From NCBI GenBank assembly GCA_000004985.1, contig GG738929.1: DNA of 64,000 nt; one strand, 5' to 3'. Below are positions 13,761 through 54,615 of this stretch, piece after piece (the stretch's first letter is position 1; the number at the start of each line of letters is the position of its first letter). This DNA comes from Naegleria gruberi (Eukaryota). A program made the position numbers and the translations under genes. Under the pieces are notes generated by a model. It worked only from the letters and a program-made list of their open reading frames with translations. It was not told the DNA's origin and made no database searches.

Positions 13761-16700
13761 TTATTGAGCTTCAACTTGACCGCCTAAACATTTAATCAAA
13801 TAATCAATCATTGAGAAACTACTCATTTCTTCTACTAGAAGATTTGAATTCAATTCCTTCAATCGATTTGTTGCTTGTTTCAAATGAATAACAGATTCAG
13901 AATATTTGCTTGAATCTTTCTTTCCGCTTTGGAGTGTTTCTTTTGCCCATTGAGAAAGAGGATACATTCCATCATCACTCTTATCATTCTCAGTAACATT
14001 AGAAAGGAAATTGTCAAATGATGTTTCTTCTACTTTACCATAGAGATTAGGATAATTTGTCTTTAAGTGATTTAGTAACTCTTCGTGAGTTGGTGGATTA
14101 GTATTGCAAATGTGAATAATTTCCAAATCAAATAATTTGAATCGAGTGGAATTGACAATGATTTTGCTTACAAAGTCAACATTCACCAAGTTTCTAACAA
14201 TTTCTAAATTTGGAGTACTGTTAGTTCTCTTAATTGATTTTAACATTCTTTCCAATAGAAAACCTTTTGGCATTTCACCTGTTTCATTTCCAATAATTAA
14301 ACCAGGTCTCACAATCAATATTGGTAATCCCAAAATGTCTTTGGCTTGTTTCAACAAACACTCGGATGCAAATTTCGTTTGAGGATATCCGAATGTGAGA
14401 TTCATTTCTGATAGTGTTGAAATCCTCTCTATTGGTTGACCTGAATCCTTATCCAAAGGTGCAGCAGATATTGAACTAACATATAGCAATGGCTTGACCC
14501 TACTCTGAAATGAAAACTCAATCATTCGTCTTGTTCCATCAACATTCGATTCTTTCAAAGATGAAAATGGTTGAATAAAATTCACAACAGAACCACCATG
14601 ATAGACAACATCAACATTCCGAGCCAATTCATCATAGGTTGCTCTGTCCATTCCAAATAAATCCAAGCCAACATCTCCAACAAGTACTTGAACTCTGCTA
14701 ATATATTCATTCTTCCAAAGTGAATACTTTTTCATGTTATCTATTAATCTCTTAGTTGCATGATCAATACTATTACCTCTACAAATACAATAGACCATTT
14801 TCAATTCTTGTAATTCTAATAAATCTCTTAATAGGAAGGCACCCAGAAATCCAGTAGATCCAGTTAAGAGAACTTGTTCATGAATGAGTGGTTGACTGGA
14901 AGAAATACTTTGTGGAAGGGATTCCTTTGATTTTTCCAAATATTTCATTATTTCTTCATTGACAACAGGTGTTAATAATTCAGATTGATTGATTGCCTCA
15001 ATGAGTTTCTTTGGAGTGTTCATCTTGTATACTTCATCAACACTCAGTTGAACATTGAATTCATTCTTGATATAATTTCTTAATTTGATCAATGAAATTG
15101 AATCTAATCCAATATTAGTAAGTGATGTATTCAGTTCAATTGCATTTTCCTCGTTTATAAATATTTGCTTATTCATAAATTCGAGAAATTGTGAAGGTTC
15201 TGCAATTTTAGAAGCTTTCTTACTTGATTGAGGTTTCTTTACCATAATATTTTCATTCTCATTAGCAGAGGATGAAACATTGTAAAGTGAATCAATAATA
15301 TTCTTGAATACTTGTTCAGTTTTAGATCTAGAAACAAGTCCTTTCAAACTACTGGTTGGAATACTATCATTGGTTAGCAATATAAAATCCACAATTCTAG
15401 AATGGAATGGAAGTCTATTATTCATTTCAATAATTTGCTCACTAATCTTTTCCTTAATATTATTAGGTTTCTTTTTAGGATCAATTTCAATCAATGCCAC
15501 ACAGAAAGGTCTATTATGACCAATGACAGCACTTCTAACAACGGATCCATCAAATGAATCAATTTCATTCTCAATTGGTACTGGATTAGTCATTTCACCA
15601 TTAGTATGACAAAGAATATTATCAGATCGGGTATTATAGAAATAGTGATCTTTAGGATACTCAAAAAATAAATCATGAGTACAGAATATACCATCTACCC
15701 AAAACTTTGTATTATTAATGGACATGTAATCCAATGCACATGTTGGGCAACCCTTCTTTAGATTCAATAAATAACACTTTTCCATTTCATAAGGTTGCCA
15801 AACAATGTACTTTTCTGGAATGACACATTTCATTGATTTGAATGCGCCAGTGAACGGATCAGCTGCCATTACAACACCTACCTCACTCATTCCATATCCA
15901 TTTGTTATGTTAATTCTATGATCTTGGCAATAATTGATGAGATGATTTGGAGTAGAAACTCCACCAAGAGCCACAACCAGACATTCAGATAATAGTTTAG
16001 TCTTTTCCTCTGATTCCATTATTTCTTCCAATAAAATTGGAAATACAATGGCTCTAGTGGATGGTAAATGTTCCTTATGGCTCAACAATACCTGACTGAG
16101 TGTTTGAGAAATACTTTGTCTAGTTGTCTGATTAAACATTATATAATTAGTACCCTTGTAGAGACAACCCAACAAGTTATATAATCCCATTAAGTGAAAT
16201 AATGGTAGAAAGTTGATAACATATTGTTGACTTGTCGTTCCAATGGATTGTGAATAGTGAAGACTTGACATTAGTGATCTCATATTGTGAATTACTATTT
16301 TAGGAATATTAGTACTACCTGAAGTGTTCAAATAAAAGCATGGATCTTCAAATTTGAATGGTAATTTCAGTGCTTGTTTCAAATCTTCATCACTGATTGT
16401 AGTATCTAATTGATCTTTGATAGCTGAAATAATGTCGAATGGTTTCAGATAGGAAGAATATTCATGTTTCTCATAATCTTTCAATTGTTGTGAAATGTCT
16501 GATGTGATCATGTATTTATCGGCTGTTTTAAAGAATGTATCCATACTCTCCTTATCACTTGCTTTAATCATTGAATCTAGAATCTGGGGAGATAAACTAA
16601 CATATTTCACATTTCCCAATTCGAGTAGTTTTGAAATAATTCCAGGAGTCAATTTGTTATTGACTGGAAAATTAATACAACCCAAAGTCCATAATGCAAA

Positions 16701-17021
16701 CAGTAATACAGAGTAGACTATTGAGTTTTCATGTAACAAAGCAACGCAAGAACCTTTCTTTAAACTTGGCCATTGCTTCATGATTAATCTTCTGGCCATT
16801 GCAACTGATTTGGAAAATTGACCAAATGTTAAGGTTGATATTTCCAATTTGTAATCTAATGGTAATTCACCATCTGTGATCACTCTTGTGAGGAAAGTTG
16901 ATTGAGAATTGTTCAAACCATAATGTTCTACAAGTTCCAATAAGTTAAAGAATGGTTTCCTATTTAAAGGCCATTCAACTTGAATTCCTTCGTGGTCTAT
17001 AATTTCTGTTGACTGACTCAT
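13761..17021 (-). CDS. NRPS-like carboxylic acid reductase / Lys2-type enzyme: adenylation domain, phosphopantetheine carrier domain, NAD(P)-dependent thioester reductase domain (A-T-R), single exon, 1086 aa
   Basis: The A-domain cores are NTSGSTNIPK (A3) and TNGYGMSEVG (A5). The carrier Ser motif is NIGLDSISLIKL. The reductase Rossmann motif LLTGSTGFLGAFLL is present, together with a downstream YxxxK (YPQTK). The ATG at 17021 is real. Confidence 0.85.
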   Translation of the reverse strand: MSQSTEIIDHEGIQVEWPLNRKPFFNLLELVEHYGLNNSQSTFLTRVITDGELPLDYKLEISTLTFGQFSKSVAMARRLIMKQWPSLKKGSCVALLHENSIVYSVLLFALWTLGCINFPVNNKLTPGIISKLLELGNVKYVSLSPQILDSMIKASDKESMDTFFKTADKYMITSDISQQLKDYEKHEYSSYLKPFDIISAIKDQLDTTISDEDLKQALKLPFKFEDPCFYLNTSGSTNIPKIVIHNMRSLMSSLHYSQSIGTTSQQYVINFLPLFHLMGLYNLLGCLYKGTNYIMFNQTTRQSISQTLSQVLLSHKEHLPSTRAIVFPILLEEIMESEEKTKLLSECLVVALGGVSTPNHLINYCQDHRINITNGYGMSEVGVVMAADPFTGAFKSMKCVIPEKYIVWQPYEMEKCYLLNLKKGCPTCALDYMSINNTKFWVDGIFCTHDLFFEYPKDHYFYNTRSDNILCHTNGEMTNPVPIENEIDSFDGSVVRSAVIGHNRPFCVALIEIDPKKKPNNIKEKISEQIIEMNNRLPFHSRIVDFILLTNDSIPTSSLKGLVSRSKTEQVFKNIIDSLYNVSSSANENENIMVKKPQSSKKASKIAEPSQFLEFMNKQIFINEENAIELNTSLTNIGLDSISLIKLRNYIKNEFNVQLSVDEVYKMNTPKKLIEAINQSELLTPVVNEEIMKYLEKSKESLPQSISSSQPLIHEQVLLTGSTGFLGAFLLRDLLELQELKMVYCICRGNSIDHATKRLIDNMKKYSLWKNEYISRVQVLVGDVGLDLFGMDRATYDELARNVDVVYHGGSVVNFIQPFSSLKESNVDGTRRMIEFSFQSRVKPLLYVSSISAAPLDKDSGQPIERISTLSEMNLTFGYPQTKFASECLLKQAKDILGLPILIVRPGLIIGNETGEMPKGFLLERMLKSIKRTNSTPNLEIVRNLVNVDFVSKIIVNSTRFKLFDLEIIHICNTNPPTHEELLNHLKTNYPNLYGKVEETSFDNFLSNVTENDKSDDGMYPLSQWAKETLQSGKKDSSKYSESVIHLKQATNRLKELNSNLLVEEMSSFSMIDYLIKCLGGQVEAQ

Positions 17022-24533: not shown

Positions 24534-26507
24534 ATGTACTCACTGCACCAACACACTACTCAAGATGAATGTAATGATCATTCACATTCTGATACCTTCT
24601 TCGATGATAATAGTACTATTGAGTCATTGCTCAATGATGATTTGTTTTCACACCTTGCTGGCAATACTCAAGCACCATCAGAGAGTGGAGTTTCTAATTC
24701 TTGTCATGATTTTGAAGATGATAACGATGATAATGAACGAGTTGACAATGAAGAAGAAAGTATGCCACCTTGTAAACACCTAACACCAGATGCAAAGAAG
24801 GAGAAGGAGGAATTTGTTGCTAGAAAATTAACAGAAGAGGAAATTCCAATGGAAAGAACAATATTTTGCAGTAATTGTACTTCATGCACTTCATGTGTCT
24901 GTCAGAAGAATAAGCTTCCCTGTACAGTTAAATGTGCATGTCAAATTAAATGTAAAAATTTGAGAAAAGAAGTACTAACTGATAATTGGATTCAACACAA
25001 AACCTTACCAGAAAGAAATATTGAAAGTCCACTAATAGTTGGTCCAATTAATGTGAAACAAGATTTATCCATAAAGGAATCATTTCAATTGATTTGGACA
25101 CCTGATATTATAGAACACATTTATGAGAGAACCAATAGAAAGTTTGAATATTGGCAAATTTACTCAGATGAGATTAAAATGTATAAACTTGCAATTAAAG
25201 ACAAATCCAAAAAGAGAAAGAGAATGAACAATAACACTAATCCATCTGAATCCATTGAATTATGTTCAGATATCGAATATGATCAGCCAGTTAGAACTCC
25301 AAAAAAGATATTTCCTGATTTTGATGAATATTTCACAAAATGTAAAACTGAAAACAAAATATTAGAAGAAAAGTTTTCAAGAAAGCAAATTACTAACTTT
25401 TTAAATATTTCTATATTGATGAATACTACATGTAAAATTCCAAACATTTGCAATTATTGGACAATATCAGGACTTGATGCAGCCCTTTATGGAAATGGAA
25501 TATTCAGATATTTAATGAGTAGATCAATGTTTAATCAAATCAAGCAGAATTTAACATGTGACTCTGATTTTTTGGAAATGAGAGTGAATGAGAATTCTAG
25601 AAAATTTTGGAAATGTTTCAAAGAAATTTCAGTGGATGAAATAATTGCTCCTTTCAAGGGAAAGATTAGTGACAAACAGTTTCTCCCCACCAAACCTCAC
25701 AATTATGGATTGAAATATTATACACTATCTGATTGGGTTGGGTATGTTTATGCATTTTGGTTGTCAAAACACGAACATAAATCAGATAAAATTGTTTTAG
25801 ATCTTATTGAGCATATTGATGATCCACAGAATCATATTTTAGGTGTCGACAATTATTATGGATCATTAAATTTAGCAAATCAATTATCAGAAAAAGAATG
25901 GAATTATGTCATGACAGTGAGGGCTAATAGACCAACATTTCTTTTCAGTGATGGATTGTTGAAACATCTCAAAAGAAGCAAAACTAAAAAGTGGACTCAA
26001 GCTGTCCATAAAAACAATCACATGGCTGCTGTTTCTCTCAATGATCACAAAAAGGTTAATTTTTTAACTAATTTGGGAAGTAATCAAACATTTCATTCAC
26101 AACCACTTGTTCAGAAATATGAAAGAATGGGTTGTGTTGAATTGTCTGGAATCAATCTTTACAAAATGGATGTTCCCTTCGAGGTAAATAATTGGAAAAT
26201 CATCCATCTCTTTGAAGTTCTACGTATAGCTCTCGTTAATCAATATTTAATTTATAAGCATGTTAGAAACTTAACTAATTTGACCCTCAATGAATATTTG
26301 CAAGAGGCAACATTATCTCATTGTGAATCCACCAACCCAAATTTCAAAAGAACAATACATTTCCCATCCAGTGTCAAAACTCGTGGACTTTGTGAGCATT
26401 GTAAGAATTTTCATTCTCTCACTCCTATCAAATGTCCTGCTTGTAATTCCTACCTTCATCAAAAGTGTTTTGTAGATTTTCACCTTAAAAAACACATTTA
26501 TTATTAA
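24534..26507 (+). CDS. piggyBac-transposase-derived protein (DDE_Tnp_1_7) with an N-terminal CXC/tesmin-like Cys-rich region and a C-terminal Cys-rich zinc-finger tail; probably a domesticated or solo transposase gene
   Basis: The piggyBac catalytic-core signatures are present: SVDEIIAPFKGKISDKQFLPTKPHNYGLKYY and VDNYYGSLNLANQL...VMTVRANRP. The N-terminal segment CSNCTSCTSCVCQKNKLPCTVKCACQIKC is Cys-rich. The C-terminal segment CEHCKNFHSLTPIKCPACNSYLHQKC is also Cys-rich. I found no TTAA-flanked CCCTAGAAAG-type terminal inverted repeats in the flanks. Confidence 0.7.
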   Translation: MYSLHQHTTQDECNDHSHSDTFFDDNSTIESLLNDDLFSHLAGNTQAPSESGVSNSCHDFEDDNDDNERVDNEEESMPPCKHLTPDAKKEKEEFVARKLTEEEIPMERTIFCSNCTSCTSCVCQKNKLPCTVKCACQIKCKNLRKEVLTDNWIQHKTLPERNIESPLIVGPINVKQDLSIKESFQLIWTPDIIEHIYERTNRKFEYWQIYSDEIKMYKLAIKDKSKKRKRMNNNTNPSESIELCSDIEYDQPVRTPKKIFPDFDEYFTKCKTENKILEEKFSRKQITNFLNISILMNTTCKIPNICNYWTISGLDAALYGNGIFRYLMSRSMFNQIKQNLTCDSDFLEMRVNENSRKFWKCFKEISVDEIIAPFKGKISDKQFLPTKPHNYGLKYYTLSDWVGYVYAFWLSKHEHKSDKIVLDLIEHIDDPQNHILGVDNYYGSLNLANQLSEKEWNYVMTVRANRPTFLFSDGLLKHLKRSKTKKWTQAVHKNNHMAAVSLNDHKKVNFLTNLGSNQTFHSQPLVQKYERMGCVELSGINLYKMDVPFEVNNWKIIHLFEVLRIALVNQYLIYKHVRNLTNLTLNEYLQEATLSHCESTNPNFKRTIHFPSSVKTRGLCEHCKNFHSLTPIKCPACNSYLHQKCFVDFHLKKHIYY

Positions 26508-26725
26508 ACAATTAAATCAAAGATATTTAGATTTCAATAAAGTATTGAATCTTAATACTTTTTGCCATCAAAACCTTCAGTTTAAGCGACTAGAAAATAG
26601 GGGGAACCTTTGCCAATTTTTCAATACCAAACAAAGGGATAAAAACAGTTTAATAAGTATTAAGTTATTTAATAAAATACTTTTAAGCAATCAAGATCTT
26701 GTTTTCAATCTATGACTAAGAAAAA

Positions 26726-26843
26726 GACTACAGCACCACAGGTTCCCAAGTTGTCTCCAACCTCAGTACTGATGTGGCTCGACGATGCTTAACTTCTCAA
26801 ATCGGACGGGATGAGGTGCATGAATCGTGATATGGCCGTAGCC
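26726..26843 (-). rRNA. 5S ribosomal RNA gene (copy 1), 118 nt, followed by a T-run Pol III terminator
   Basis: The reverse complement reads GGCTACGGCCATATCACGATTCATGCACCTCATCCCGTCCGATTTGAGAAGTTAAGCATCGTCGAGCCACATCAGTACTGAGGTTGGAGACAACTTGGGAACCTGTGGTGCTGTAGTC followed by TTTTTC. The universal 5S blocks are present: CTACGGCCATA, CATCCCGTCCGAT, GAAGTTAAGCA, AGTACT, GGAGAC, TGGGAA and GGTGCTGTAG. The two ends pair to form helix I. Confidence 0.8.
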
Positions 26844-28753: not shown

Positions 28754-29263
28754 ATGTTCCTGAAGAGGCTGCCATGCCAACTTTGTGGGCTCAACAAAAG
28801 ATTGACTCTCTCTCTGCATTCCCTCAACTGTGCACAAGAAGCTAAAGATAAGCAAGAAAAGGAAAAGTTAGAAAGAATTATTAGTATGTGGAAGGAAAGA
28901 GTTAATTGGCATAAGACTGACTTTAAATTACCTGAAGAAAAGCCAGAAAAGGAAAAGAAAAAGTTGGCTGCAATGGATGACTGTATTTCTGAATCTCTCT
29001 CTGTACAATCCTCTAGTTTGGATCGTTGTTGTAGATGTGAGGAGAATAGAGAATGTTGCAGACGTTCTTGTGCACCATCTCCAAGTTGTGCTAGAGGTTG
29101 TTGTTGTCGTTCTGCTAGTCCTTCTTTGAGTTGTTCAGATATCAGTTCAGGTCCACCACCACCTTCTGGAGGTGCAGGTAGTCCACCACCTCCTTCTGCT
29201 AAGTCAACAGCCTCTCAAGAAGAACCTAGTGTTGCTGGTACCATTCCATCTGGTAATTCATAA
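28754..29263 (+). CDS. Cys- and Pro-rich small protein (hypothetical)
   Basis: It is a 169-aa ORF with strong T-ending codon bias (tgt, cgt, tct, gct, cct). It has Cys clusters CCRCEENRECCRRSC...GCCCRS and PPPPSGGAGSPPPPS. Its 3-prime end overlaps the 3-prime end of the convergent actin-like ORF by about 50 bp. Confidence 0.4.
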   Translation: MFLKRLPCQLCGLNKRLTLSLHSLNCAQEAKDKQEKEKLERIISMWKERVNWHKTDFKLPEEKPEKEKKKLAAMDDCISESLSVQSSSLDRCCRCEENRECCRRSCAPSPSCARGCCCRSASPSLSCSDISSGPPPPSGGAGSPPPPSAKSTASQEEPSVAGTIPSGNS

Positions 29264-29904
29264 GAAACATCAGTCAGTGCCTTTTCATTTTCCTGTTCAA
29301 AATCCAATGCAACATAGCAAATATTATGCTTAATATCTGTCATGACATCTGTTGGATGCTCTGCAAAATATGGTATTTTACATCCAACAAATGCTTGAAC
29401 CAAATATTCAGTAATTTCCCTTCCAGCAAAATTCCAACTTGAAATGGCATGTGTCAAGGCATATCCTTCATAGACAGGAACAGCTCTTGATACCATCTCT
29501 CCCAAATCCAAAACAATTCCACTTGTCTTGCCAGATGCAAACAATGCCAACACTCCTTGCATTGCCACATAAAAATTTGATATATTAAACTCCTCAAACA
29601 CGATCTGCGTCATCCTCTCTCTATTACACTTTGGTTCCCTCACTGCTTCACTCATCAAGATTGGATGTAATTCTGGCCTGCATCTCAATTCTTCATAAAT
29701 GGTTTGTCTCCAAACTAGTTCCATATCAGATATGTTGGTAATGACACAATGTTCAATTGGATATTTCAATGTACAGATACCTCTCTTAGCAATGGCTTCA
29801 TCACCAACTACAGTGGTGCTTGTTGATTTCTTGTGATGGCCAACTATGGTTGGAAAGATTGATGTCGGAGTATTGTCTTGTTCATTTGCTATTCCTACTT
29901 TCAT
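29215..29904 (-). pseudogene. Actin-family fragment (divergent actin / Arp-like, truncated at both ends)
   Basis: It aligns to actin from about residue 15 to about residue 245: SIFPTIVG, GDEAIAKRGICTLKYPIEHCVITN, ELRCRPELHPILMSEAVREPKCNRERMTQIVFEEF, SGIVLDLGEMVSRAVPVYEGYAL, DIKHNICYVALDFEQE and YELPDG. It lacks the N-terminal phosphate-1 loop (DNGSG) and the C-terminal third, and no continuation is found downstream. Confidence 0.5.
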
Positions 29905-29958: not shown

Positions 29959-30051
29959 ACCCAGTGTCAGGACTTGAACCTGAATTATGTGATTTGGACT
30001 TGTTGTTTAAGTATCGTCAGATTCACATGTCTTTCATTAGACTACACAGGG
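29959..30051 (-). tRNA. tRNA-like element, best fit tRNA-Gln(CUG) with a 23-nt intron after position 37; possible pseudogene
   Basis: A manual fold gives the acceptor CCCTGTG/CACTGGG (6 of 7), U8, and D-stem GTCT/AGAC. The anticodon stem is TGTGA/TCACA with loop ATCTGA|intron|A. The T-arm TCAGG-TTCAAGT-CCTGA is perfect. The D-loop is short and lacks GG, which is why I suspect a pseudogene. Confidence 0.3.
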
Positions 30052-30579: not shown

Positions 30580-32671
30580 ATGTCTACAAATGCTACCAGG
30601 GCACAACTGTTTAATCCTTTTGGTGTTTTTGTTTCATCAAATAATGAAGTTTACATTGCTGATTTTTGTAATCATGCAGTTAGAAAAATATTAGAAAATG
30701 GAAATATTGTGACAATTGCAGGAAATGGAACTGCTGGATTCAGTGGTGATAATGGTCCTGCAACAAATGCACAATTTAATTATCCTTCTAGTGTTTTTGT
30801 TTCATCAAATAATGAAGTTTGCATTGCTGATTTACATAATCATAGAATTAGAAAAATATTAGAAAATGGAAGTATTATAACAATTGCAGGAAATGGAACT
30901 GTATGGATTCAGTGGTGATAATGGTCCTGCAACAAATGCACAACTGTATAGGCCTTCTACTGTTTTTGTTTCATCAACTAATGAAGTTTATATTGCTGAT
31001 TATAGCATAATCAAAGAATTAGAAAAATATTGGAAAATGGAAATATTGTGACAATTGCAGGAAATGGAACTTATGGATTCAGTGGTGATAATGGGCTTGC
31101 AACAAATGCACAATTGTATAATCCTTGTACTGTTTTTGTTTCATCAAATAATGAAGTTTATATTGCTGATCATACAATCAAAGAATTAGAAAAATATTAG
31201 AAAATGGAAATATTATAACAATTGCAGGAAATGGAACTGATGGATTCAGTGGTGATAATGGTCCTGCAACAAATGCACAATTGTATTATCCTTCTAGTGT
31301 TTTTGTTTCATTAACTAATGAAGTTTATATTGCTGATCAACATAATCACAGAATTAGAAAAATATTGGAAAATGGAAATATTATAACAATTGCTGGAAAT
31401 GGAACTTATGGATTCAGTGGTGATAATGGTCCTGCAACAAATGCACAACTGAATCAGTCCTAATAGTGTTTTTGTTTCATCAAATAATGAGGTTTATATT
31501 GCTGATCAACAGTAATCAAAGAATTAGAAAAATATTAGAAAATGGAAATATTGTGACAATTGCAGGAAATGGAACTGCTGGATTCAGCGGTGATTCACCT
31601 TTTAATATTATAATGTATCCTCATATTGGAAATAAGTTATTAACTGGAAATAGTAGCTTGTACTCCAAAATAGAATATAATTTGAAAAAACATTCAAGAG
31701 ATCAATTATTTGGATTTCAAATTTATGGATTCATTCCACTCATTGAAAAAATTTCACCAAAATTTAGTAATATTTTGAAGAATGAAAAGATGCTTTGTTT
31801 GATGAGTTCATCACAACAAGAAATTATTCAAAAATTAATTGATTCTTTGCTGTATGATAAGAACAAGGTAAAGTTTAGCAAAGAAGAAGTGTTGGATGTT
31901 TTATTCATTTTGGGTTTATTTAAGAATGGTGAATTTATTGATTTGAAAAGATCATTGACAAGTGAATTTGTGAACTCATTCACATTAGAAAATCTTACTT
32001 TCAAATGGGAAACAATTGAAAATTTACTCAAAACTTGCAAAGAGGAATTTGGTATTCAAAATTACATTCTCGATCAATTGAATAACCATTGCATTGAATA
32101 TGCTGCTGTTCAAATGCAAACAAAAGAAGGAAACACTTTATTATCGACTCTTCCAATAATTATGAGAAATGCTACTGCCATATTTCCAAAAATGATCATT
32201 ACTGAACCAACTGCAATTAATATTGAGGAAACAATTGAAAATGAACCACAAACAATTGAATCATTATATGGTGATATGAAAACAAGTGATGTAAAAATCA
32301 AAATGGGACAAAACAAATACTTATATTGTCACAAAACTGTATTGAGTTCATCAAGTACATTGTTTAATGCATTATTTGACAGTGGATCTTGTTTCAGTGA
32401 TTTGAGTGATGATGGAATATTCACACCTGACGAATCAGAAGATTTGGAATTATTGGAAATTGTGATCAAATATTGTTATAGAATTTCAATTGACAAAATT
32501 GATGCTGTTAAAATTATTGGATTACTTGATATGGCAATGAAACATGAAATTCAATATCTAATCAATTATTGCAAGAATAACTTTACTCTATCCATTGATA
32601 ATTACTTTGCTATGCTTGAAGTTTGTGAAAATTTTTTGAATGCAATTTTTGAGAGAGATTCTCAAGTTTAG
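30580..32671 (+). CDS. NHL-repeat protein with C-terminal BTB/POZ domain; the NHL repeat array carries frame disruptions (possible pseudogene or assembly error)
   Basis: The NHL units are YPSSVFVSSNNEVYIADxxNHRIRKILENGNIVTIAGNGTAGFSGDNGPATNAQ. The C-terminal BTB is DVKIKMGQNKYLYCHKTVLSSSSTLFNALFDSG. The ORFs 30580..30918, 31281..31463 and 31466..32671 lie in different frames. Confidence 0.5.
30600..31600 (+). repeat. Tandem array of about six 177–180-bp units (each encoding one NHL repeat), 85–95% identical, several with 1–2-nt indels
   Basis: The unit recurs directly in the sequence: aatgcacaaNtgtatNatccttctNgtgtttttgtttcatcaaataatgaagtttatattgctgat...agaattagaaaaatattagaaaatggaaatattgtgacaattgcaggaaatggaactgctggattcagtggtgataatggtcctgcaacaa. 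Confidence 0.85.
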
Positions 32672-33063
32672 CATTGTCAACAGAAAACAACTCTTCATAG
32701 ATCAAAATAGAATTTCCAAATTACCTGAAAAATTTTGGCAAGAAATCTTAAAGCTTTCACAGGACTTTTGAGATTGAGACATGAAAATAATTATAATAAT
32801 TTATGTGATGCATTGTCATTGACCTTTTACTATTCGAGACGGGACTGTACTCTCTCTCCTCCTCAATAAACAACAATACTTGGTAATGACTCAGCTTCCA
32901 TTTTCTCTCAATGGTGCGTTTTGAATACAGAGGAAAAGACTAAATTATGACAAATACTTTACATTCTTAAAGCTGTGAAGTAAAAATTGAATCAGATGAT
33001 GAAAGCTACTTATCCTCTCAAATAAACGAATGTCTTACTGTTTTATTTAAAATGGTATCTAAA

Positions 33064-37542: not shown

Positions 37543-37726
37543 TTTTTAATCGACGAAAGGTCAACATGAATATCGAGAATCAAAAGGCCACAAAAAGAAA
37601 TGTCCTTCTAAAAGGTTCTCGGGAGAAATCATCAACACCTTTCGATAAATTGGGATTACAGCTTTTATGGAGCATCAAATCAGAAGCAATCAAGATCTTG
37701 TTTTCAATCTATGACACTAAGAAAAA

Positions 37727-37844
37727 GACTACAGCACCACAGGTTCCCAAGTTGTCTCCAACCTCAGTACTGATGTGGCTCGACGATGCTTAACTTCTCA
37801 AATCGGACGGGATGAGGTGCATGAATCGTGATATGGCCGTAGCC
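37727..37844 (-). rRNA. 5S ribosomal RNA gene (copy 2), identical 118-nt body to copy 1 (not compared base by base), with a T-run terminator
   Basis: It has the same sequence blocks as copy 1. The conserved 3-prime flank (about 40 nt) differs only by a 2-nt insertion, and the 5-prime flank is unrelated. Confidence 0.8.
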
Positions 37845-38458: not shown

Positions 38459-39001
38459 TTATTGGAAATTTTTTAAGCAATCGATAAATAATTGTTCAGA
38501 TTTCATTTTAGTGAGTGATTCTTCTCCAATAATAAGAATAAATTCTTCATTTAATTTGAAATAAAATCTGAACATTTTTAATATGCCATCTAGTTGAATA
38601 ACAGATTGAACCTGAAATAAATCTGGATTAATCCTATCTGTAAATGGTCTTAAAGAAACAATTCTAAATATTACACAATTATATAAATATCCATTATTGT
38701 ATCCACCATTTAAATCTTCATTAAATTACATCGTTCTTTTTACAGGTACAAAACCTCTTGTAAATCATTTTCATCATATGGAATTGATATGGTGCAATTG
38801 AGCTACTCATACCATGACATCATCACTACTTGTAAATTCATAATCAAACAAATTACGTTCCATTTTACAATTCCAACATGACACAAATGCAATCTCCTTA
38901 ACAATATGTTCCTTATCAATGAAGTTAGAACATTCGAGTTGGGTATTTGAATGAAGTATGTTGAGGCATTGGCTTTGGAAGATGAAACTTTCCAAGAGCA
39001 T
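38459..39001 (-). CDS. Small (about 113 aa) possible longin/roadblock-fold protein, 2 exons: join(39001..38813, 38611..38459)
   Basis: Exon 1 (63 aa, real ATG) ends at ATG|GTATGA. The acceptor TTTATTTCAG restores an open frame, giving VQSVIQLDGILKMFRFYFKLNEEFILIIGEESLTKM...Q*. The 201-nt intron is longer than the others seen here. The family call is weak. Confidence 0.3.
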
Positions 39002-39119
39002 GATGAAGCCTATCTAATCCAGAGGAGAATCACAGTTAAAACAAATAAATAACTTTACAAAAATGTTTTTTTATATTGTTAATATTGGATCAACAGCATT
39101 AACTGCACAATATTGTGAA

Positions 39120-39542
39120 TTAAAATTCGTATGATTTTGGCTTGTGAGCACCAGTGGAGCTGTTCAATTTAGCAATAACTTCTTCTTGAGAAAGTTGAGC
39201 ATGTTCAGAAGCTTGAATATCAATGTGAACAGAGTACTTTTGAGTAACGATGGTCTTATTAGCAGCAACCTTTGATCTCTTCATGGCATTACATTGACTA
39301 CCAGTCCAAGCAACTAAAACGAATTTAGTTCTTCTAGAATCATCATCAACAGCAACAGCACGATAAATACCAAACTTGACATCAGATGGACCGAATGAAC
39401 CCAAGAATTCATCCCAATCACCAGTACCAGTGGCATCCATGATCAAACCCGTCTTTTCTGGGACGAAAGTGAACCATTTAATGGATTCAGTCTTCAAGGA
39501 TTCCCAAGCAGCATCAATTTCTGGAGCAACGTTAGTGGACAT
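39120..39542 (-). CDS. Coactosin-like ADF-H (actin depolymerisation factor homology) domain protein
   Basis: The ADF-H pattern is KFVLVAWTGSQCNAMKRSKVAANKTIV. It is about 140 aa with a single domain. The real ATG is at 39542 (MSTNVAPEIDAAW); the track start at 39575 is a non-ATG codon. Confidence 0.7.
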   Translation of the reverse strand: MSTNVAPEIDAAWESLKTESIKWFTFVPEKTGLIMDATGTGDWDEFLGSFGPSDVKFGIYRAVAVDDDSRRTKFVLVAWTGSQCNAMKRSKVAANKTIVTQKYSVHIDIQASEHAQLSQEEVIAKLNSSTGAHKPKSYEF

Positions 39543-39759
39543 TTTGTTCTTGTGTTTTTTTTTGTGTGAAAACAACTTGATGACAGGGATTTATACTTGT
39601 CCATTGATGTGTGTGGCAGTTGTTGCTTACACGTGTTGTGGTGAAGAGAAAAAACCTGTCAACGATTGGCTTGCCCGTTAAAAAGATGACATACGTCAAG
39701 TTAAAATGTTTGATTGATGAGCAAAATTTTGATTGACAAGTTTGAAAGACAAGCAAACT

Positions 39760-39768
39760 TTTCCCGCC
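39760..39768. promoter_or_regulatory. E2F-like site TTTCCCGCC about 220 bp upstream of the coactosin gene
   Basis: This is a single consensus-like occurrence in the intergenic region 39576..40015. Confidence 0.2.
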
Positions 39769-40015
39769 CAATTAATTTTAACGTGTTAAATTGTGTGAAT
39801 CATACTCCGTACCTGACTGTTGGCTTTTTCTTATTGAATGTCCATTCATGTTCGAAGACGGCAAATCTGTAGATGAATAGAGTCCTGACATCTTTAAGAA
39901 TCCATATTTACAGTAAATTAATCTTTAATCTTTATATTGTCATCAACTACTAATAAATGTCAACTAGTAGTAGAAGCAGATTAGAGAGAAGATTATTGTT
40001 GAAAGATATAACATT

Positions 40016-40963
40016 CTATTGATGTGATGGATAAAACTTGACAAAACATCCAATGGCATCTTGTGAAATTTGTAATGGATTGAAACTTGTTTGTAAATAT
40101 CCTTCAATACTATTGTTAATACTATTGTTACTATTAATACTATTATCACTACTGTTAGTATGTGAAAAAATCATTTCACAATTTAAATTTTCCAAAATTG
40201 CAATTCTAGCATTCCAAAATCTACCATGTGAATGTTCAATAATTGGTGCCTTATTAGGATGGTCAATTGATGGTGTATCAATTCCAATAAGGAGAAGATT
40301 AGGTAATTCTCTTGATAAATATTCAGCTGCACTTGGATGAAAATGTGCAAAATCATTGGTCCATTCTTGTTCATCACTTGGTTGATTGGATCGAGTCTTG
40401 ATGATACATCTGAGAATTTTATCTTTTGGAATTTTACTCTTTTCAATTGCATTTCTAAGAATTTCTTCTGAAATTTCCAAATTATTCTTCAATTCTTCCA
40501 CTAAATTTAATACTAAACAAGCTCCATTATATTGAAGAGTGTGAAAATATTCCACAATTGGATTCTTTTCAAAATGTTTAGGTTGATCAGCATGTGTTCC
40601 AGCATGACTATTCGAAAGTATGACATTTCTAGTAACAATACAAACTCCATTACACGAAGATGAAACATCACACGATTGATTCATTAGACATGATGAACAC
40701 AATGATTTTACATTTTCCTTCTCTAATTTTAATTCCTTCTCTATTAAATCATCCACTGAAATAAATTGAGCATACGGAGTGTAATCATGATATGGAAATG
40801 AAGCATATTTAGCACACGGAGAAACAGTCAATTCAATTACATTCCATACTTTAATTGATGAAAGGCTTGATGATTTAAATTCTTCATCAATTTTAATTGA
40901 ATTTTCAAGTTTGGATTTTAATATTGTACATGGAATATCTAATAATTTGATCCATTCGATCAA
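40016..40963 (-). CDS. Cyclase-family / kynurenine formamidase-like protein
   Basis: The HxGTHxDxPxH metal-binding motif is present as SHAGTHADQPKH. The size is appropriate for the fold. The track start is TTG, so the true N-terminus is uncertain. Confidence 0.65.
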   Translation of the reverse strand: MIEWIKLLDIPCTILKSKLENSIKIDEEFKSSSLSSIKVWNVIELTVSPCAKYASFPYHDYTPYAQFISVDDLIEKELKLEKENVKSLCSSCLMNQSCDVSSSCNGVCIVTRNVILSNSHAGTHADQPKHFEKNPIVEYFHTLQYNGACLVLNLVEELKNNLEISEEILRNAIEKSKIPKDKILRCIIKTRSNQPSDEQEWTNDFAHFHPSAAEYLSRELPNLLLIGIDTPSIDHPNKAPIIEHSHGRFWNARIAILENLNCEMIFSHTNSSDNSINSNNSINNSIEGYLQTSFNPLQISQDAIGCFVKFYPSHQ

Positions 40964-41221: not shown

Positions 41222-42124
41222 ATGTTCAAAAATTCAAATACATTTATTCAGCATCATTTACGTTCGATTGCTGTTCATCATAAACAACAAAAATACTATC
41301 GATTCGGACTCGGATTAATTCAAAGTAATAATAATTTATCATTAAATAATAATCAATGTAGATATTTTCTGAAGAATATTTTCGGAGGTGATAATAAATT
41401 AAAAGAAGAAGTTGAAAAGGAAAGAGAAAGATTATCAAAACATTTGAAAAATGAAAGAGATAATATCCAATCGGAAATTCACAGATATTCTCCTCTTAAA
41501 GAAATTAAATCAGTCCTCAAACATAAAGGAAAACTTTTTGTTTCCATGTCAGGACAATTAATTCCACTAGAAAAGAGTACAGTCTTTCCATCACCTGAAG
41601 TTATTCTCGGAGATGGTAGAAATAAGGCTGTTATTAAGAATATTAATGGAGAACAAGTTGATCTTGTAAAGAAAATCAAGCAATGTAGAGCAACTTTATT
41701 ATTTGTGAATTTTACTGAATATGGTTCAAATATGACAAAGGAATGGAAGGAAGCATATGAAGAATTTCAAACTCAATATGAAACTTCTAGCCCATCATCA
41801 TCTGTAAACAAAACTCAATGTATAGATTTAAGTATTAGCGAAAATTATGTCGTTTCGTGGCTTGAATCTTATGTCACTAAAAATTTAAAATCTGTAGTTC
41901 CAGAAAAGATGCATGCCAATACTTTATTAACATTCCTCAAGAATAATAATGAAACTTTCAAATTTAAGGATGCTGTAGAAATTACCAATAGTAAGACATG
42001 TTACGTTTTTGTTATTGATCAACAATGTAGAATTAGATGGAGAGGTTGTGGATCACCTGAAGGTAAAGAAAAGGATTTTATGATATCAGCCATTCAACAA
42101 TTACTCACTCAAAGAATACAATAA
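41222..42124 (+). CDS. Possible mitochondrial ATP10-family assembly factor (hypothetical)
   Basis: It has about 300 aa with a basic N-terminus. The C-terminal pattern CYVFVIDQQCRIRWRGCGSPEGKEKD resembles the conserved ATP10 (V/I)DxxGRIRWxGSG motif. This call rests on memory only. Confidence 0.35.
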   Translation: MFKNSNTFIQHHLRSIAVHHKQQKYYRFGLGLIQSNNNLSLNNNQCRYFLKNIFGGDNKLKEEVEKERERLSKHLKNERDNIQSEIHRYSPLKEIKSVLKHKGKLFVSMSGQLIPLEKSTVFPSPEVILGDGRNKAVIKNINGEQVDLVKKIKQCRATLLFVNFTEYGSNMTKEWKEAYEEFQTQYETSSPSSSVNKTQCIDLSISENYVVSWLESYVTKNLKSVVPEKMHANTLLTFLKNNNETFKFKDAVEITNSKTCYVFVIDQQCRIRWRGCGSPEGKEKDFMISAIQQLLTQRIQ

Positions 42125-44673: not shown

Positions 44674-44723
44674 NNNNNNNNNNNNNNNNNNNNNNNNNNN
44701 NNNNNNNNNNNNNNNNNNNNNNN
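44674..44723. other. Assembly gap (50 N)
   Basis: Run of n characters. Confidence 1.
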
Positions 44724-44972: not shown

Positions 44973-46552
44973 ATGAAGATCTCAAAACTTGTTAAGAATA
45001 CCAAGAATTTAATCTCAACAAATAATAGATGCTTCTCTACTTGTGTTAATAACAAGGGAAGCGTTATTGGATCTCCTGCTGAAATTCCTCTTTCTAGCTT
45101 CTACCCAGGAGCTCCTCATCTTCCAAAGGATATTGATGCTAAAGAAGAATCACTTGTTTTCCAAACACAAACATCAACTCTTCCAAACGGTTTGAACGTT
45201 GTTTCAACTGTAAGTAATAATAATAATAACAAGAAGAGAAGACTTATTCCGCGGTAATAACGATTTTTATTGGAAATTATGATGTCAATGACGACGATGT
45301 ATTTAATGATGAAAATTTAAAAAATTAATTTTAATAGGATTCTACTTCAAGAGGAGTTAGTGTTGTCAGTCTTTTTGTCAATGCTGGATCCCGTTTTGAA
45401 ACATATCGTACAAGCGGTGTTTCTCACTTTGTTGAAAAGTTCTTCTTCTCAAGCACAAACAATAGAAGTTTGTTGAGATTGACAAGCGAATTACAAAAGA
45501 CTGGTGCTAGTGTTAGCGCTCAAACTGGTCGTGAACATATTGTATATCAAGCTGAAGCTTTGCGTGAATCAGTTCCTCTTGTTGTGGAACTTATGGCAAA
45601 CTCTGTTTTGCAAGGTAGATTGCATCCATGGGATTTGGAACCAAAGGCTGAAGCTGTTAAACGTGATATTTCTGAATTCCAAAACAATGCTCAATTCGTT
45701 TTGAATGAAGCTCTCCATCATACTGCTTTCAATGGTGAAACTCTTGGTCGTTCACTCTTGTGTCCACCACACAATGTCTCAAAGATTGATACTGATATTG
45801 TTTTGTCTTACATGAACAATTTATATGTTGCTCCACGTATGACTTTGGTTGGTACTAACATTTCACACGAAGAACTCAAAGAATTAGCTAATGTTTTGTT
45901 CTCATCAATTCCATCACAAGTTTCTGAAAGACCAGAAGGTGAACATTTCACTTTTGAAAAGTCCGAATATGTTGGAGGTGACTTGCAAATTCACGAACAT
46001 TCTCATGCTGGTACTCAAGCTATTTTGGCTTATAAGGGACCATCTCTCACTTGTTCTAAACATGTAGCATATCTTGTTTTGTCTGAACTTTTGGGACAAA
46101 CTACCAACAAGTATACTGGATCTGTTAATCACAGTGCTTCCAGATTGGCCAAGTCTGTTAAGAATGTTGAATTTGGATCTTCATTTGTTTCATCATACTC
46201 TGATAATGGTTTGTTCGGAGTCTTCCTTGCTGGTAAGAATGCTAAGGAAGTTTCCTCAGCTGTTCAATCCACAGTTGCTGAATTGAGCTCTGTTCAATCT
46301 ACTTTGACTGCTAAAGCTCTTGAAGGTGCTAAGAATCACGCTTTGCTCAAGCTCTACAACTCTGTTTCATCAAGTGTTGGTTTGCACGAACACACTGCTA
46401 CTTATGGTGGTGTCCAACAAGTAGCTCAAGCTATTTCTTCTGTCAGTGCTGCTGATGTTATTGAAGTTGCTAAGACTTTGTTGCAATCTAAGCCAACTTT
46501 GGTTTCTTATGGTGATCTTAACGGAATGATCAAGACTAGAAACATTCAATAA
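44973..46552 (+). CDS. Mitochondrial M16-family non-catalytic subunit (cytochrome bc1 core protein 2 / MPP-alpha-like), 2 exons: join(44973..45209, 45338..46552)
   Basis: There is a mitochondrial presequence. The degenerate zinc motif is HFVEK rather than HxxEH. The C-terminal segment SYSDNGLFGVFLAG matches core-2 SYSDSGLFG. The 128-nt intron is GTAAGT...TTAATAG. A 50-N gap lies just upstream at 44674..44723. Confidence 0.75.
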
Positions 46553-46652
46553 TTCTTTTTTGTTATAGAAAAACCGGTGAAAAAAAGTCAAAAGGGAGGG
46601 TCCTTTTATAATACCCTTATATAAATTAAAAAAAATCAATTTCTAAAATAGT

Positions 46653-49600
46653 TTATTTAATTTCTAATATTCCAAGTTTGAGTTCAATATCTTGTCTTGA
46701 TAAAATACGTGCTTGATGAATAACAGTATATCTATTATTGGATGAAATTGGAATTCCTTGTGAGAGCATGATATCAGTAACTTCAATAACCTTATCAGTT
46801 GCATGTAAAATTGTCAATTCCAAATACTTGTTCATTAAATCTTCAATTGAAAAGATATCTTCATATTGTAATGAATCTTGATTTTCAAATAATGATTCAT
46901 CACTCATTAATTGTTGAAATAATAAACTAGTTTCAAAATAATCTGAAAAATCTCTACAATTATGAGTTAACAAGTATAATGTTAATAAATCTCTTCTTGT
47001 TTCTCTATTTCTCAAATTATAAAAACACCACAATGCAGTAATAAATTGTCTTCTATGACATGTCATTAAAATTCCATTCAAAGTTCCAACATTATCAAGT
47101 GGAATTAGAGATTTTTCAATTAATTGTTTAATTCTATTTTGAGATTTTCCTTTCAAAATAATTAAAGTAATATAATAATAAATTTCATCATTCTTTTCAA
47201 TATTATTTTCCTTATTTGTAATTATATTTAAAATATTATTAACATGATAAGTATCATCATTTGGTAAAGTTATCATTTCTAAACCTTTCAAATAACAAGT
47301 TGTAATTAAAGTTAGAAATTTTTGAACATTTTCATCAACTTTTGAATTTTTCCAATTTAAAACAGAATTAAAAATAGATTTTTGTAATTCTGGATTTTTT
47401 CTTAAATGAATATTTTGTAATTCATTAAATAAATTTAAAACAATATCCAAAGATGGAATTAAATTATAAACTTGATAAATTTCTTTAAATATAGAAACTG
47501 CTTTTGTAAAATAATTTTTATGTTGTAAATAAGATTTAATAATTAATCTAAAAGTTTCCAAATTTGGTTTTACCATATTTTGTTTTAATTGTAAATAAAA
47601 AAATTCAATTTTTTCTAAATTTTTTTCCTTTTCATAAATTTCAATTAAAATATTATAAGCATTAACATTTTTAGGATATAATCTAATTATATTATTACAA
47701 ATTTCAATTGTTTTTTCTATATTTATATTTAAATAATATTGTGCCATTAAATCATAAGTTTCTATATTTGGAAAACTTTCTAAAAATGAAGTCATTTCTT
47801 CAATTAGTAATTTAAATGATTTTGAATTATTTTGATTTAATAAATATAAAAGTAATAAATTACAAATTTCAGTATTTAAAATTATTGAATCATTATAATT
47901 TTCAATAAATTTTTTAATTTCATCTTGTTTTTCAAAAATTAATTGTCCTTTTAAGTAAATTCTTTTTGTATTTGTATTATTTTCTAAATTTGGTAATTTA
48001 ATTAAAACATCTTGATAAAATGAAAATATTTTGTTTACATGTTTTAAATATTTTGATTCATTTAAGTGACTAGTTTCCATTTCTATAATTGTTTCAAATA
48101 TTAAATTAAATAAATTTGTTAAAAATTCAATTTTTTCATTTGTAAAATTTTTTAAATTATTAATTAAAAAATTAAAAATATTTGCTGCTATAAATGGTTT
48201 ATCTAATTTGGTACATAAAATTTCAATTACATTTTTAATAATTTCCTTTTCATTATTTAATTTTTCCAATTCAATAAAATTTAAATTTAAAATTAAATTT
48301 TCAATTAAATTATTTTCATTATTTTCATTTAAATATTTTAATTTAAATTCATTTGCAAATTCCAAATCTTTTTGTGTTGAAGAATTTTGAATTAATTTTT
48401 CATAAATTAAATTTAAAGTTTCATTTTCAATTTTTAAATTTAATTTTTTTAAATTTCCAAAAATTTCTAATGCAACATCTAAATTATTTATATTTTTAAT
48501 TAATTGATTTAAAATTTTACTTTTTTGTTCATTAGTTAAATTTGTTTGATTTTTAAAATTTCTATAAATAAATGATAAATTATTTCCAAATATAGTTGAT
48601 ATATTATTAATTAATCTATTTAAATATTCATTATCATATTCATTAATATTATTTAAATAATTATTAATACAATAATTAAAATAATTTAAAATTAATTGAT
48701 TACTATTTCCATCTTTTAATATATTTGCTTTATATGGTAATATTTCTATTCTTAATTTTGTACAAATTTCAAATAAATTTAATGATGACATGTCATTTGC
48801 CATAAATTTTAAAGCTAATTTAAATGAAATTGTAAAATTTGATTTAATTTTAGAAAATAATTTTCTAATCATTTCAATATTTCCATTTTTATCATAAAAA
48901 GTTAATAATAAAGAAAATTCTTCATCATTTAAATTATCTAAATTTGGTAAAATAAATTCATCAATTAAATTTTCATTTCCATTAAATTCAATTAATTTAA
49001 TTAAAAAAGATTTAAAATTTTTATAATTTTTAAAATTTAAAATTAATTCATTTAAATTTTTAGAATTTAAAATAAATAATTCTTTTGTTTTTTCATTAAT
49101 TAAATTATTATTTGTATTTATAAATTTAAATAATTCATCAACATTTAAATTTTTTTTAATCATATTTTCAATTACTAAATTAATTAAATCAATTTCAAAA
49201 TTATTTTTCTTTTTTAAAAATTTTGAATTTAATAATTCAATTGCTTCATTAATTCCATCATATTTAATTAAAGTTTCAATTGATTTTTTATAAATTTCAT
49301 TTTTTTTATCAATATTTCCAATATTATCAATTATTCTATTTATGGAATTTAATATACTTTTATTATAATCAATTAAATTTATATTATTTTCATTTTTATT
49401 CATTATTAATATTGTATTAAATAATTTTAAATAAATTTCACTTGTTTTATTTGGAATATTATTAAAATATAATAATCCATTTTGTAATGATTCCTTTTTT
49501 AGTATATTTTCTAATTCAATTTCATATGAAAATGTATTTTCATCTTTTTCAATATATTTTAATATTATATTTTGAATATTTTCATAAATTTCATTATAAT

Positions 49601-50153
49601 TTATATTTTCTAATTTATTAATAGGAGTATTAATAGTATTTATTGTATTATTTGAATTAATTGTTATATTTGAATTTATATTTAAATTATTATTGATATT
49701 ATTAGTATTACTGTTATTGAAAGTTGTTGAATAATTTCTAATAGAAAATAATCTTGTTGTTGTTGTTGTTGATAATACTTCGGAAGATGATGTTGATTTA
49801 AAACTAGTTAAAGATTTCTTGTTCAATTGATTATTTAAACAATCATTATGATAATATTGTTGTTGTTGATAATGATGAATTAAACGAACAATAAGATTAC
49901 TAGTAGTATTGTTGTTGTGATACACACGATGATGATTTAATAATTTAGCCTTTTGCATCATTTTTTTCAATTTTTCAAAAAAACATGAAGCATAATTAAA
50001 ATCAAGCCTTGACAAGTAAATGTGCATAATAATACTACTATCAAAAACAGAGTATATTAGTCTTAACATATCATCAACAAATACTTGGAAGAAAAAGTCA
50101 ATTTGATTGAAGCCTTTATCAAAGGCTAAAAATTCATTAAAAAAAATGAACAT
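46653..50153 (-). CDS. Very AT-rich helical-repeat protein, probably PPR/TPR-like (organellar RNA-binding type), about 1100 aa
   Basis: It is a long ORF dominated by N/I/K/L, with recurring 35-aa-like helical units (for example YNILIEIYEKEKNLEKIEFFYLQLKQNMVKPNLETFRLIIKSYL). The start is uncertain: the ATG at 50153 would overlap the NSUN gene start head-to-head, and an internal MM at 49961 is an alternative. Confidence 0.45.
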   Translation of the reverse strand: MFIFFNEFLAFDKGFNQIDFFFQVFVDDMLRLIYSVFDSSIIMHIYLSRLDFNYASCFFEKLKKMMQKAKLLNHHRVYHNNNTTSNLIVRLIHHYQQQQYYHNDCLNNQLNKKSLTSFKSTSSSEVLSTTTTTRLFSIRNYSTTFNNSNTNNINNNLNINSNITINSNNTINTINTPINKLENINYNEIYENIQNIILKYIEKDENTFSYEIELENILKKESLQNGLLYFNNIPNKTSEIYLKLFNTILIMNKNENNINLIDYNKSILNSINRIIDNIGNIDKKNEIYKKSIETLIKYDGINEAIELLNSKFLKKKNNFEIDLINLVIENMIKKNLNVDELFKFINTNNNLINEKTKELFILNSKNLNELILNFKNYKNFKSFLIKLIEFNGNENLIDEFILPNLDNLNDEEFSLLLTFYDKNGNIEMIRKLFSKIKSNFTISFKLALKFMANDMSSLNLFEICTKLRIEILPYKANILKDGNSNQLILNYFNYCINNYLNNINEYDNEYLNRLINNISTIFGNNLSFIYRNFKNQTNLTNEQKSKILNQLIKNINNLDVALEIFGNLKKLNLKIENETLNLIYEKLIQNSSTQKDLEFANEFKLKYLNENNENNLIENLILNLNFIELEKLNNEKEIIKNVIEILCTKLDKPFIAANIFNFLINNLKNFTNEKIEFLTNLFNLIFETIIEMETSHLNESKYLKHVNKIFSFYQDVLIKLPNLENNTNTKRIYLKGQLIFEKQDEIKKFIENYNDSIILNTEICNLLLLYLLNQNNSKSFKLLIEEMTSFLESFPNIETYDLMAQYYLNINIEKTIEICNNIIRLYPKNVNAYNILIEIYEKEKNLEKIEFFYLQLKQNMVKPNLETFRLIIKSYLQHKNYFTKAVSIFKEIYQVYNLIPSLDIVLNLFNELQNIHLRKNPELQKSIFNSVLNWKNSKVDENVQKFLTLITTCYLKGLEMITLPNDDTYHVNNILNIITNKENNIEKNDEIYYYITLIILKGKSQNRIKQLIEKSLIPLDNVGTLNGILMTCHRRQFITALWCFYNLRNRETRRDLLTLYLLTHNCRDFSDYFETSLLFQQLMSDESLFENQDSLQYEDIFSIEDLMNKYLELTILHATDKVIEVTDIMLSQGIPISSNNRYTVIHQARILSRQDIELKLGILEIK

Positions 50154-54570: not shown

Positions 54571-54615
54571 TTTTTTTTTAAAAATGTTTTTTCAACTTCA
54601 ACGTTTTGATTTGTT

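Follow-up and report, generated by a model that had tools for sequence, protein, structure and literature searches.

Within a 64,000-nucleotide (nt) stretch of Naegleria gruberi contig GG738929.1 (assembly GCA_000004985.1), which was analysed over its full length and is referred to here as the window, the plus strand carries a gene that joins a tandem array of NHL repeats to a BTB domain. It is deposited in GenBank as an intact protein, XP_002669261.1. Both the array and the breaks in its reading frame are genuinely present in the deposited sequence; as assembled, this copy cannot make the propeller-BTB-BACK protein. The sequence of the breaks points to two slightly different templates that were merged at clusters of mismatches. 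Merging in the assembler, i.e. a consensus error, is the explanation that we rank first, and we give it about an even chance. The locus is built from the following parts:

30580..32671 (+): annotated coding sequence, XP_002669261.1 / EFC36517.1, NAEGRDRAFT_75816, 618 amino acids (aa), "predicted protein", strain NEG-M
30601..31594 (+): tandem array of NHL-repeat units (Tandem Repeats Finder, TRF: period 168 bp, 5.9 copies, 89% matches, 1% indels, score 1525)
31595..32278 (+): linker and helical domain between propeller and BTB; no Pfam match, specific to a narrow family
32279..32581 (+): BTB/POZ domain (Pfam PF00651, 40.3 bits against a cutoff of 20.5), residues 272-372 of the open reading frame (ORF) 31466-32671
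32624..32660 (+): 3′ lesion, net −14 nt, CEN-FLNA where the closest intact tail has CENYFDLQLFEQ
32640..32771 (+): tail ORF, orphaned and out of frame; from the second residue of the ORF on (QFLREILKFSIVNRKQLFIDQNRISKLPEKFWQEILKLSQDF, 42 aa), 100% identical to the C-terminus of XP_002670611.1

An interrupted reading frame through the NHL array

According to TRF, the stretch 30601-31594 is the sole strong tandem array of this kind in the window. Its unit comprises 56 codons, and the units correspond to the six blades of a propeller. The Pfam NHL model (PF01436) is matched with 51.2 bits (cutoff 20) in the ORF 30580-30918, upstream of the BTB match with 40.3 bits. This bears out the original prediction, made from the letters of the DNA, in so far as it described near-identical NHL-encoding tandem units inside an NHL-BTB gene; the unit length, however, is 168 bp by TRF and not the proposed 180 bp. 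In an alignment the units measure 168, 169, 170, 167 and 168 nt and are followed by a final partial unit with two +1 insertions. Hence, all six units are present at the DNA level, yet no single frame translates them. As had been noticed before, the only long ORFs at the locus are 30580-30918, which covers the first two repeats, and 31466-32671, which covers the last repeat, the linker and the BTB domain. The coding path can be followed through the array in six segments:

30580-30900 (+): frame 0, from the ATG at 30580
30902-31006 (+): frame 1
31006-31173 (+): frame 0
31173-31460 (+): frame 2
31459-31512 (+): frame 0
31508-32671 (+): frame 1, to the stop at 32671

The frame thus changes five times and is hit by a sixth lesion near the 3′ end, so that the three breaks counted previously are too few. 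Indels of 1–2 nt had been placed in units 2, 3, 4 and 6, and the unit alignment shows them there. The stops that had been listed next to them are not lesions in their own right: every stop in the array is caused by a frameshift, and the number of independent nonsense mutations is zero.

Array indels fall in the most variable codons

Each frame change corresponds to a short indel relative to the in-frame sister units:

30901..30904 (+): indel 1, +1 nt, GTAT for a 3-nt codon, unit position 45 (frame 0 to 1)
31001..31008 (+): indel 2, +2 nt, TATAGCAT for six nt, unit positions 22-23 (frame 1 to 0)
31171..31175 (+): indel 3, −1 nt, CATAC for six nt, unit positions 22-23 (frame 0 to 2)
31455..31458 (+): indel 4, +1 nt, CAGT for a 3-nt codon, unit position 5 (frame 2 to 0)
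31507..31513 (+): indel 5, +1 nt, CAACAGT for six nt, unit positions 22-23 (frame 0 to 1)

When codon variability is computed over 25 units from six intact close paralogues, positions 5, 7, 22, 23 and 45 stand out as the most variable ones (entropy 1.9-2.9 bits), most of the others being invariant. All five indels lie within these five codons. With uniform placement, the probability of this outcome would be (15/168)^5, or ~6e-6. None of the five falls into one of the 20 homopolymer runs of the array. The array indels are therefore not random decay. Codon differences among the units (139 non-synonymous versus 41 synonymous) cluster at the same variable positions, a ratio that fits homogenised units with a diversifying surface. 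Judging from the strand map and the topology rather than from coordinates, positions 5, 7, 22, 23 and 45 would all be located on one face of the propeller, in its B-C and D-A loops.

It is important to note that four of the five indel strings can be read as two merged alternative codons. GTAT equals GTA, coding for the Val that the closely related paralogue XP_002668792.1 (P0003) has in unit 2, overlapping TAT, coding for the Tyr of units 3 and 5. Likewise, TATAGCAT corresponds to TATAGC (Tyr-Ser) merged with ..CAT (His23 in unit 3 of P0003), and CAACAGT to CAG overlapping AGT (Ser23 in unit 6 of P0003). Thus, one partner of GTAT, of TATAGCAT and of CAACAGT gives the P0003 residue at the same unit and position, which supports a merging of templates, although these readings rest on assumed codons of P0003 and leave some freedom. 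Indel 5 is situated at the 5′ edge of a tract that is 100% identical to P0003 on the amino acid level.

A sixth lesion detaches the C-terminal helices

The remaining lesion lies downstream of the array, outside the region that the original prediction had covered, and removes the last ~42 conserved residues. Whereas the closest intact tail, that of XP_002670611.1 (P0122), reads CENYFDLQLFEQFLREILKF, the present copy has CENFLNA and then continues with QFLREILKF... in another frame, up to a stop at 32771. The shift terminates translation at 32671, two codons past the end of the P0003 match; its size of −14 nt was deduced from the protein alignment with the intact P0122 tail. The orphaned ORF encodes the BACK-like terminal helices, so that the BACK-like or 3-box helices which follow the BTB domain in intact relatives are out of frame in this copy (last 42 residues). 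Short direct repeats, AATTTTTTGA / AATTTTTGA, surround the lesion. The two ends of the P0003-identical tract are thus marked by indels 4 and 5 on one side and by the 3′ lesion on the other.

A Naegleria-specific family of NHL-BTB proteins

When the frame-repaired protein was used as a query, the search retrieved N. gruberi "predicted proteins" (~700-790 aa) that are organised in the same way, along with one protein of N. lovaniensis. By sequence comparison, the locus is a copy of a lineage-restricted, Naegleria-specific and uncharacterised NHL-BTB family. Intact paralogues of ~730 aa consist of a six-bladed NHL propeller, a helical domain, the BTB domain and BACK-like helices. An AlphaFold (AF2) model of the intact paralogue P0004, computed with the family alignment, has a mean predicted local distance difference test (pLDDT) score of 81. 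In this model residues 1-335 form six blades of four strands each (24 strands, pLDDT >90), followed by a disordered linker (340-380), the helical domain (380-535), the BTB domain (~560-665) and the terminal helices (673-732). In a Foldseek search of the P0004 model against the PDB the best matches were NHL propellers, namely a teneurin-like protein, a "quenching protein", NHLRC2 and Pizza6. With a profile of the C-terminal module, matches were obtained to the BTB domains of BCL6, PLZF, KEAP1 and KBTBD4; in KBTBD4 (residues 34-196) and KBTBD2 the aligned region extends beyond the BTB domain to the first part of BACK. A family profile was required for these matches; a single-sequence search of the PDB with the BTB tail gave no match.

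The C-terminal module is rare. An exhaustive HMMER scan of 1.84 billion cluster representatives yielded only 73 relatives of the linker-BTB module; at the N-terminus, those of them that were scanned carry NHL repeats in some cases, ankyrin repeats in others, and nothing recognisable in yet others. The NHL units, on the other side, are 50-57% identical to bacterial NHL proteins over the whole propeller (e.g. P0006 from Spirosoma, P0012 and P0018), which are closer than any non-Naegleria eukaryotic match listed. This likeness could reflect an old horizontal transfer or a convergence of consensus-like repeats.

The comparison with paralogous NHL-BTB genes elsewhere in the genome, which had been suggested as a check, was made at the protein level. 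P0003 (679 aa) has an intact array; P0004, P0005 and P0007 (~700-733 aa) and the N. lovaniensis protein C9374_010626 (P0013) share the same architecture and unit length. Six uninterrupted units are found in P0003, P0004 and P0005. Over the 345 aa that follow the array there are 0 differences between the present copy and P0003. P0122 (390 aa) is 97% identical over the C-terminal module and has the full C-terminal tail; its model begins just after the array. Relative to these intact homologues, the assembled sequence carries the frame-disrupting lesions by which pseudogenes are recognised, i.e. five indels plus the tail lesion. Relaxed constraint, in the sense of an excess of unusual substitutions along the gene, was not seen in the repaired units or in the 345-aa tract: 11 of 279 residues in the repaired units (3.9%) are unseen in relatives, compared with 1.8-6.5% in intact paralogues. 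To speak of a "decaying" array, as had been done, is thus an overstatement, because the lesions occur only in hypervariable codons and where the identity tract ends, and not all along the gene.

Several other models of the family are irregular. P0002 and P0010, on other N. gruberi scaffolds, look like fusions of two copies; the models of P0007 and of P0126/P0127 skip parts of a unit, and P0122, as mentioned, starts right behind the array. The irregularity is the same in P0126 and P0127, which reside on two separately assembled scaffolds. Going by these sequences, array trouble, whether real or made by assembly, seems to be common in the NHL-BTB family.

A possible merging of two templates in the assembly

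We favour the view that the two templates were merged in silico rather than in the cell. In this scenario, Sanger reads of near-identical paralogues, one of them sharing 345 identical residues, would have been piled together during assembly. Gaps would have entered their alignment where codons are hypervariable and where the identical tract ends, and a consensus that keeps bases of both templates would have acquired indels of 1–2 nt. The true gene would then probably be intact. We rank this explanation first because no other sign of decay is apparent and because three of the lesions are found exactly where reads of a paralogue would stop matching. The unique genes of the window have clean ORFs of at least 1,000 aa, from which we conclude that the base quality is otherwise good. 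Of the collapse or mis-assembly invoked in the original prediction, it is therefore the mis-assembly part, as a base-level consensus error from mixed templates, that we retain; a collapse is at odds with the six units that the array shares with its paralogues.

A number of points weigh against a consensus error. It is deduced indirectly, from the assembled sequence itself, and the P0003 codon choices that enter the merged-codon readings are assumed ones. Assemblies from 8x Sanger data normally reject overlaps at ~90% identity, and for this reason indels 1–3 are hard to attribute to the assembler; moreover, they lie 340-610 nt from the P0003-identical tract, and unit 5, although closer to it, is clean. 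Neither the −1 indel nor the net −14-nt tail lesion is a simple union of two codons. Nor is P0003 an allelic scaffold: its interpretation as an allele (haplotig) of the locus was dropped, as clustering at ≥90% identity gave no second copy of the flanking genes. Relics in the neighbourhood, a truncated actin-like ORF and a piggyBac-type transposase, would suit real pseudogenes, and so would the irregular models of several other family members. Finally, heteroduplex repair in the course of ectopic gene conversion could leave the same merged signature in vivo.

Alternative explanations

The last point leads to the strongest rival, which we consider a serious possibility that falls somewhat short of an even chance. 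The lesions would be real, and the copy would be a very recently inactivated pseudogene, damaged by ectopic or intra-array gene conversion with a paralogue. In this case the C-terminal half would have been homogenised while a heteroduplex extended across the diverged array. Loops at mismatch-dense hypervariable codons would have been repaired with the bases of both strands kept, resulting in +1, +2 and −1 indels and in a damaged 3′ end of the tract. The position of the indels in hypervariable codons, the merged-codon strings and the lesions at both ends of the P0003-identical tract fit equally well with such a process. The complex 3′ lesion (net −14 nt), lying amid direct repeats, resembles the outcome of slippage or repair. 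In addition, the array has the right number of units, and unique sequence elsewhere on the scaffold is clean. The distance of indels 1–3 from the identical tract with a clean unit 5 in between, the status of P0003 as non-allelic and the adjoining relics (the actin-like ORF is limited to actin residues 18-247) count on this side as well. The irregular array that P0126 and P0127 have in common was assembled separately on two scaffolds, so arrays of this family do suffer real lesions or deletions. On the other hand, constraint is not relaxed and 0 of 345 residues differ from P0003, so the gene must have been inactivated extremely recently on this reading, although it carries six independent lesions. 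Furthermore, the bases of both strands would have been retained at four or five sites, and we know of no documentation of this as a common outcome of mismatch repair. The recent pseudogene of the original prediction is hence possible if it is very recent; the lack of an excess of unusual residues and the 345 aa that are identical to a paralogue with an intact array speak against it.

With far less confidence, one may regard the indels as real traces of a mutational process that is specific to hypervariable, ligand-facing codons. Frame-broken copies would then be its by-products or would be rescued by new introns. A candidate for such a process is codon swapping between units or paralogues that is driven by conversion, which would diversify the substrate face and sometimes leave merged codons behind. 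We deem this improbable.

The annotated gene model and its three introns

The deposited model bridges the breaks by splicing. When the exons 30580-30900, 31006-31115, 31190-31456 and 31513-32671 are joined and translated, the product is exactly XP_002669261.1 (P0125 in our set, a member of the 90%-identity cluster of P0122). The GenBank record and the present analysis therefore deal with the same locus; the record presents an intact protein of 618 aa, whereas the DNA contains five frameshifts and a truncated tail. Three introns are annotated:

30901..31005 (+): "intron" 1, 105 nt, GTATGG...TTATAG; encodes 35 residues of a canonical NHL unit in frame 1
31116..31189 (+): "intron" 2, 74 nt, GTATAA...ATTAG; drops 25 residues of blade 4
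31457..31512 (+): "intron" 3, 56 nt, GTCCTA...AACAG; drops 18 residues of blade 6

We judge all three to be spurious, i.e. prediction artefacts that step over the breaks, because canonical repeat peptide can be read, in a shifted frame, from the DNA that they remove, because intact paralogues, that of N. lovaniensis included, encode the removed stretches continuously, and because the spliced product would lack ~7 of the 24 propeller strands. Compared with intact paralogues, the gene model has gaps of 35, 25 and 18 residues (78 in total), which map to blades 3, 4 and 6 of the P0004 model. As many as 29 alternative GT-AG pairs preserve the ORF across the first pair of breaks and 14 across the third break; a gene predictor will therefore easily find such bridges. 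If the model were nevertheless correct, the 105-, 74- and 56-nt segments would be newly intronised coding sequence, and splicing would rescue the 618-aa frame. All three segments have GT-AG ends, the spliced frame is open, a donor of good appearance (GTATGG) arises from indel 1, and the acceptors TTATAG and AACAG coincide with indels 2 and 5. Apart from the encoded repeat peptide and the numerous alternative GT-AG pairs, however, the donor GTCCTA is weak, and the product would still end early without the conserved tail. We thus rate the annotated introns as very improbable.

Unusual micro-introns, which had been considered as a further way out, find no support, as the indels are changes of 1–2 nt against in-frame sister units. 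The annotated introns are of ordinary size. A 10-nt GT..AG candidate in unit 6, GTAATCAAAG, was dropped, as the other break sites have no GT and show plain length differences of 1–2 nt.

Least credible of all are a wrong unit number and programmed ribosomal frameshifting: tandem repeats with 89% identity are classic sites of assembly collapse (or expansion), and a shifting ribosome could in principle follow the path 0-1-0-2-0-1, but the unit count equals that of the intact paralogues P0003, P0004 and P0005 and of a six-bladed propeller, so that the array is not collapsed, and the break sites (ACTGTATGG, TATAGCATAAT, CATACAAT, AATCAGTCC and CAACAGTAA) are unrelated in sequence, have no common slippery motif and would require shifts in different directions (+1, +2 and −1).

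Genomic surroundings

The assignment of the window to N. gruberi is corroborated by its genes. ORF 41222-42124 is an exact match of XP_002669262.1 (Atp10, Naegleria gruberi), which is placed on the same 189,881-bp contig as the record of the NHL-BTB locus, and three further ORFs near the locus are exact N. gruberi models of this contig. The window has a G+C content of ~32% and contains two N-gaps, which marks it as a draft scaffold. One gap of 50 N occupies 44674-44723. The other, a scaffold gap of 4,768 N (58256-63023), is preceded by ~12 kb (46000-58200) in which G+C falls to 14-25%; ORF 46653-50153 (1,166 aa) lies in this AT-rich part and may be of low complexity.

Closer to the locus, an intact piggyBac-type transposase ORF of 657 aa (24534-26507, plus strand; PF13843 DDE_Tnp_1_7, E = 1.6e-33) is located 4 kb upstream of the NHL-BTB gene. 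The actin-like ORF 29215-29904 (minus strand, 229 aa) covers only residues 18-247 of actin, with 49% identity to human ACTB; its C-terminal third was not detected nearby, and the ORF may be what is left of a gene or one part of a split model. Between this ORF and the NHL-BTB gene, a 93-nt tRNA match (29959-30051, minus strand; Rfam, 43.2 bits) was not called by ARAGORN and probably represents an intron-containing tRNA. Two dispersed 5S rRNA genes map to 26725-26843 and 37726-37844, both on the minus strand and with 100.3 bits each in Rfam. Rfam and tRNA scans revealed no RNA gene inside the NHL-BTB locus. Further away, ORF 13761-17021 (minus strand, 1,086 aa) combines AMP-binding, PP-binding and NAD_binding_4 domains, an arrangement known from carboxylic-acid and alpha-aminoadipate reductases.

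Independent copies of the locus were sought as well. Neither a protein scan nor an exact 26-mer scan of JGI metagenome contigs returned an independent sequence of the NHL-BTB locus, and a search for contigs encoding P0001 or P0003 gave no match. Metagenome contigs of ERR1078381 (ENA ERZ929261, PRJEB11402) are 96% identical to window positions 38764-40849 (loci L001 and L002) and encode an identical cofilin protein; being only 1-2 kb long, none extends to the NHL-BTB gene. This sample therefore contains a close relative, i.e. a related strain, of N. gruberi NEG-M. In the literature, we found no paper that pairs Naegleria with NHL and BTB, and the Naegleria pangenome paper has nothing on the NHL-BTB family.

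Consequences for annotation and biology

In itself, the finding is nothing out of the ordinary, as it concerns one member of the family, frame-broken or mis-called, for which GenBank already has a doubtful gene model. XP_002669261.1 almost certainly corresponds to no real product, and the main value of the analysis lies in curation. Several irregular family models (P0002, P0007, P0122, P0126 and P0127) may likewise be unreal, which would affect counts of Naegleria BTB or NHL genes and any work on structure or phylogeny that builds on them. Should the indels be real, the locus would illustrate neatly how a gene can be killed when diverged repeats undergo gene conversion. If codon swapping were true, it would amount to a eukaryotic mechanism of repeat diversification.

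Comparison with known adaptors and propellers

By analogy, the members of the family are probably Cullin-3 substrate adaptors in which the variable propeller face chooses the substrate. A narrow family with homogenised units and with variation in five codons is what would be expected of fast-evolving substrate adaptors. Among the Cullin-3 adaptors, SPOP has the order MATH-BTB-3-box, with the recognition domain first, and KLHL/KBTBD proteins consist of BTB, BACK and a Kelch propeller. As in these proteins, the BTB domain of the Naegleria family is followed by helices that resemble the start of BACK, and it is joined to a recognition module, here a beta-propeller that could bind substrate; the recognition-domain-first order is that of SPOP. 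In contrast to SPOP and KLHL/KBTBD, the recognition domain is an NHL propeller rather than Kelch or MATH, Cullin binding is a prediction only, and a family-specific helical domain of ~150 aa is inserted between the propeller and the BTB domain, in a module that is rare. When compared with six-bladed NHL propellers such as NHLRC2, the NHL domain of teneurin, TRIM71/Thin and Pizza6, the array matches the Pfam NHL model above the cutoff, and the fold of P0004 agrees with the NHLRC2 and "quenching protein" entries (Foldseek E 1e-14 to 1e-29; root-mean-square deviation 2.3-3.5 Å). The units of the Naegleria family, however, differ from those of known NHL propellers in their length of 56 residues and in their high degree of homogenisation.

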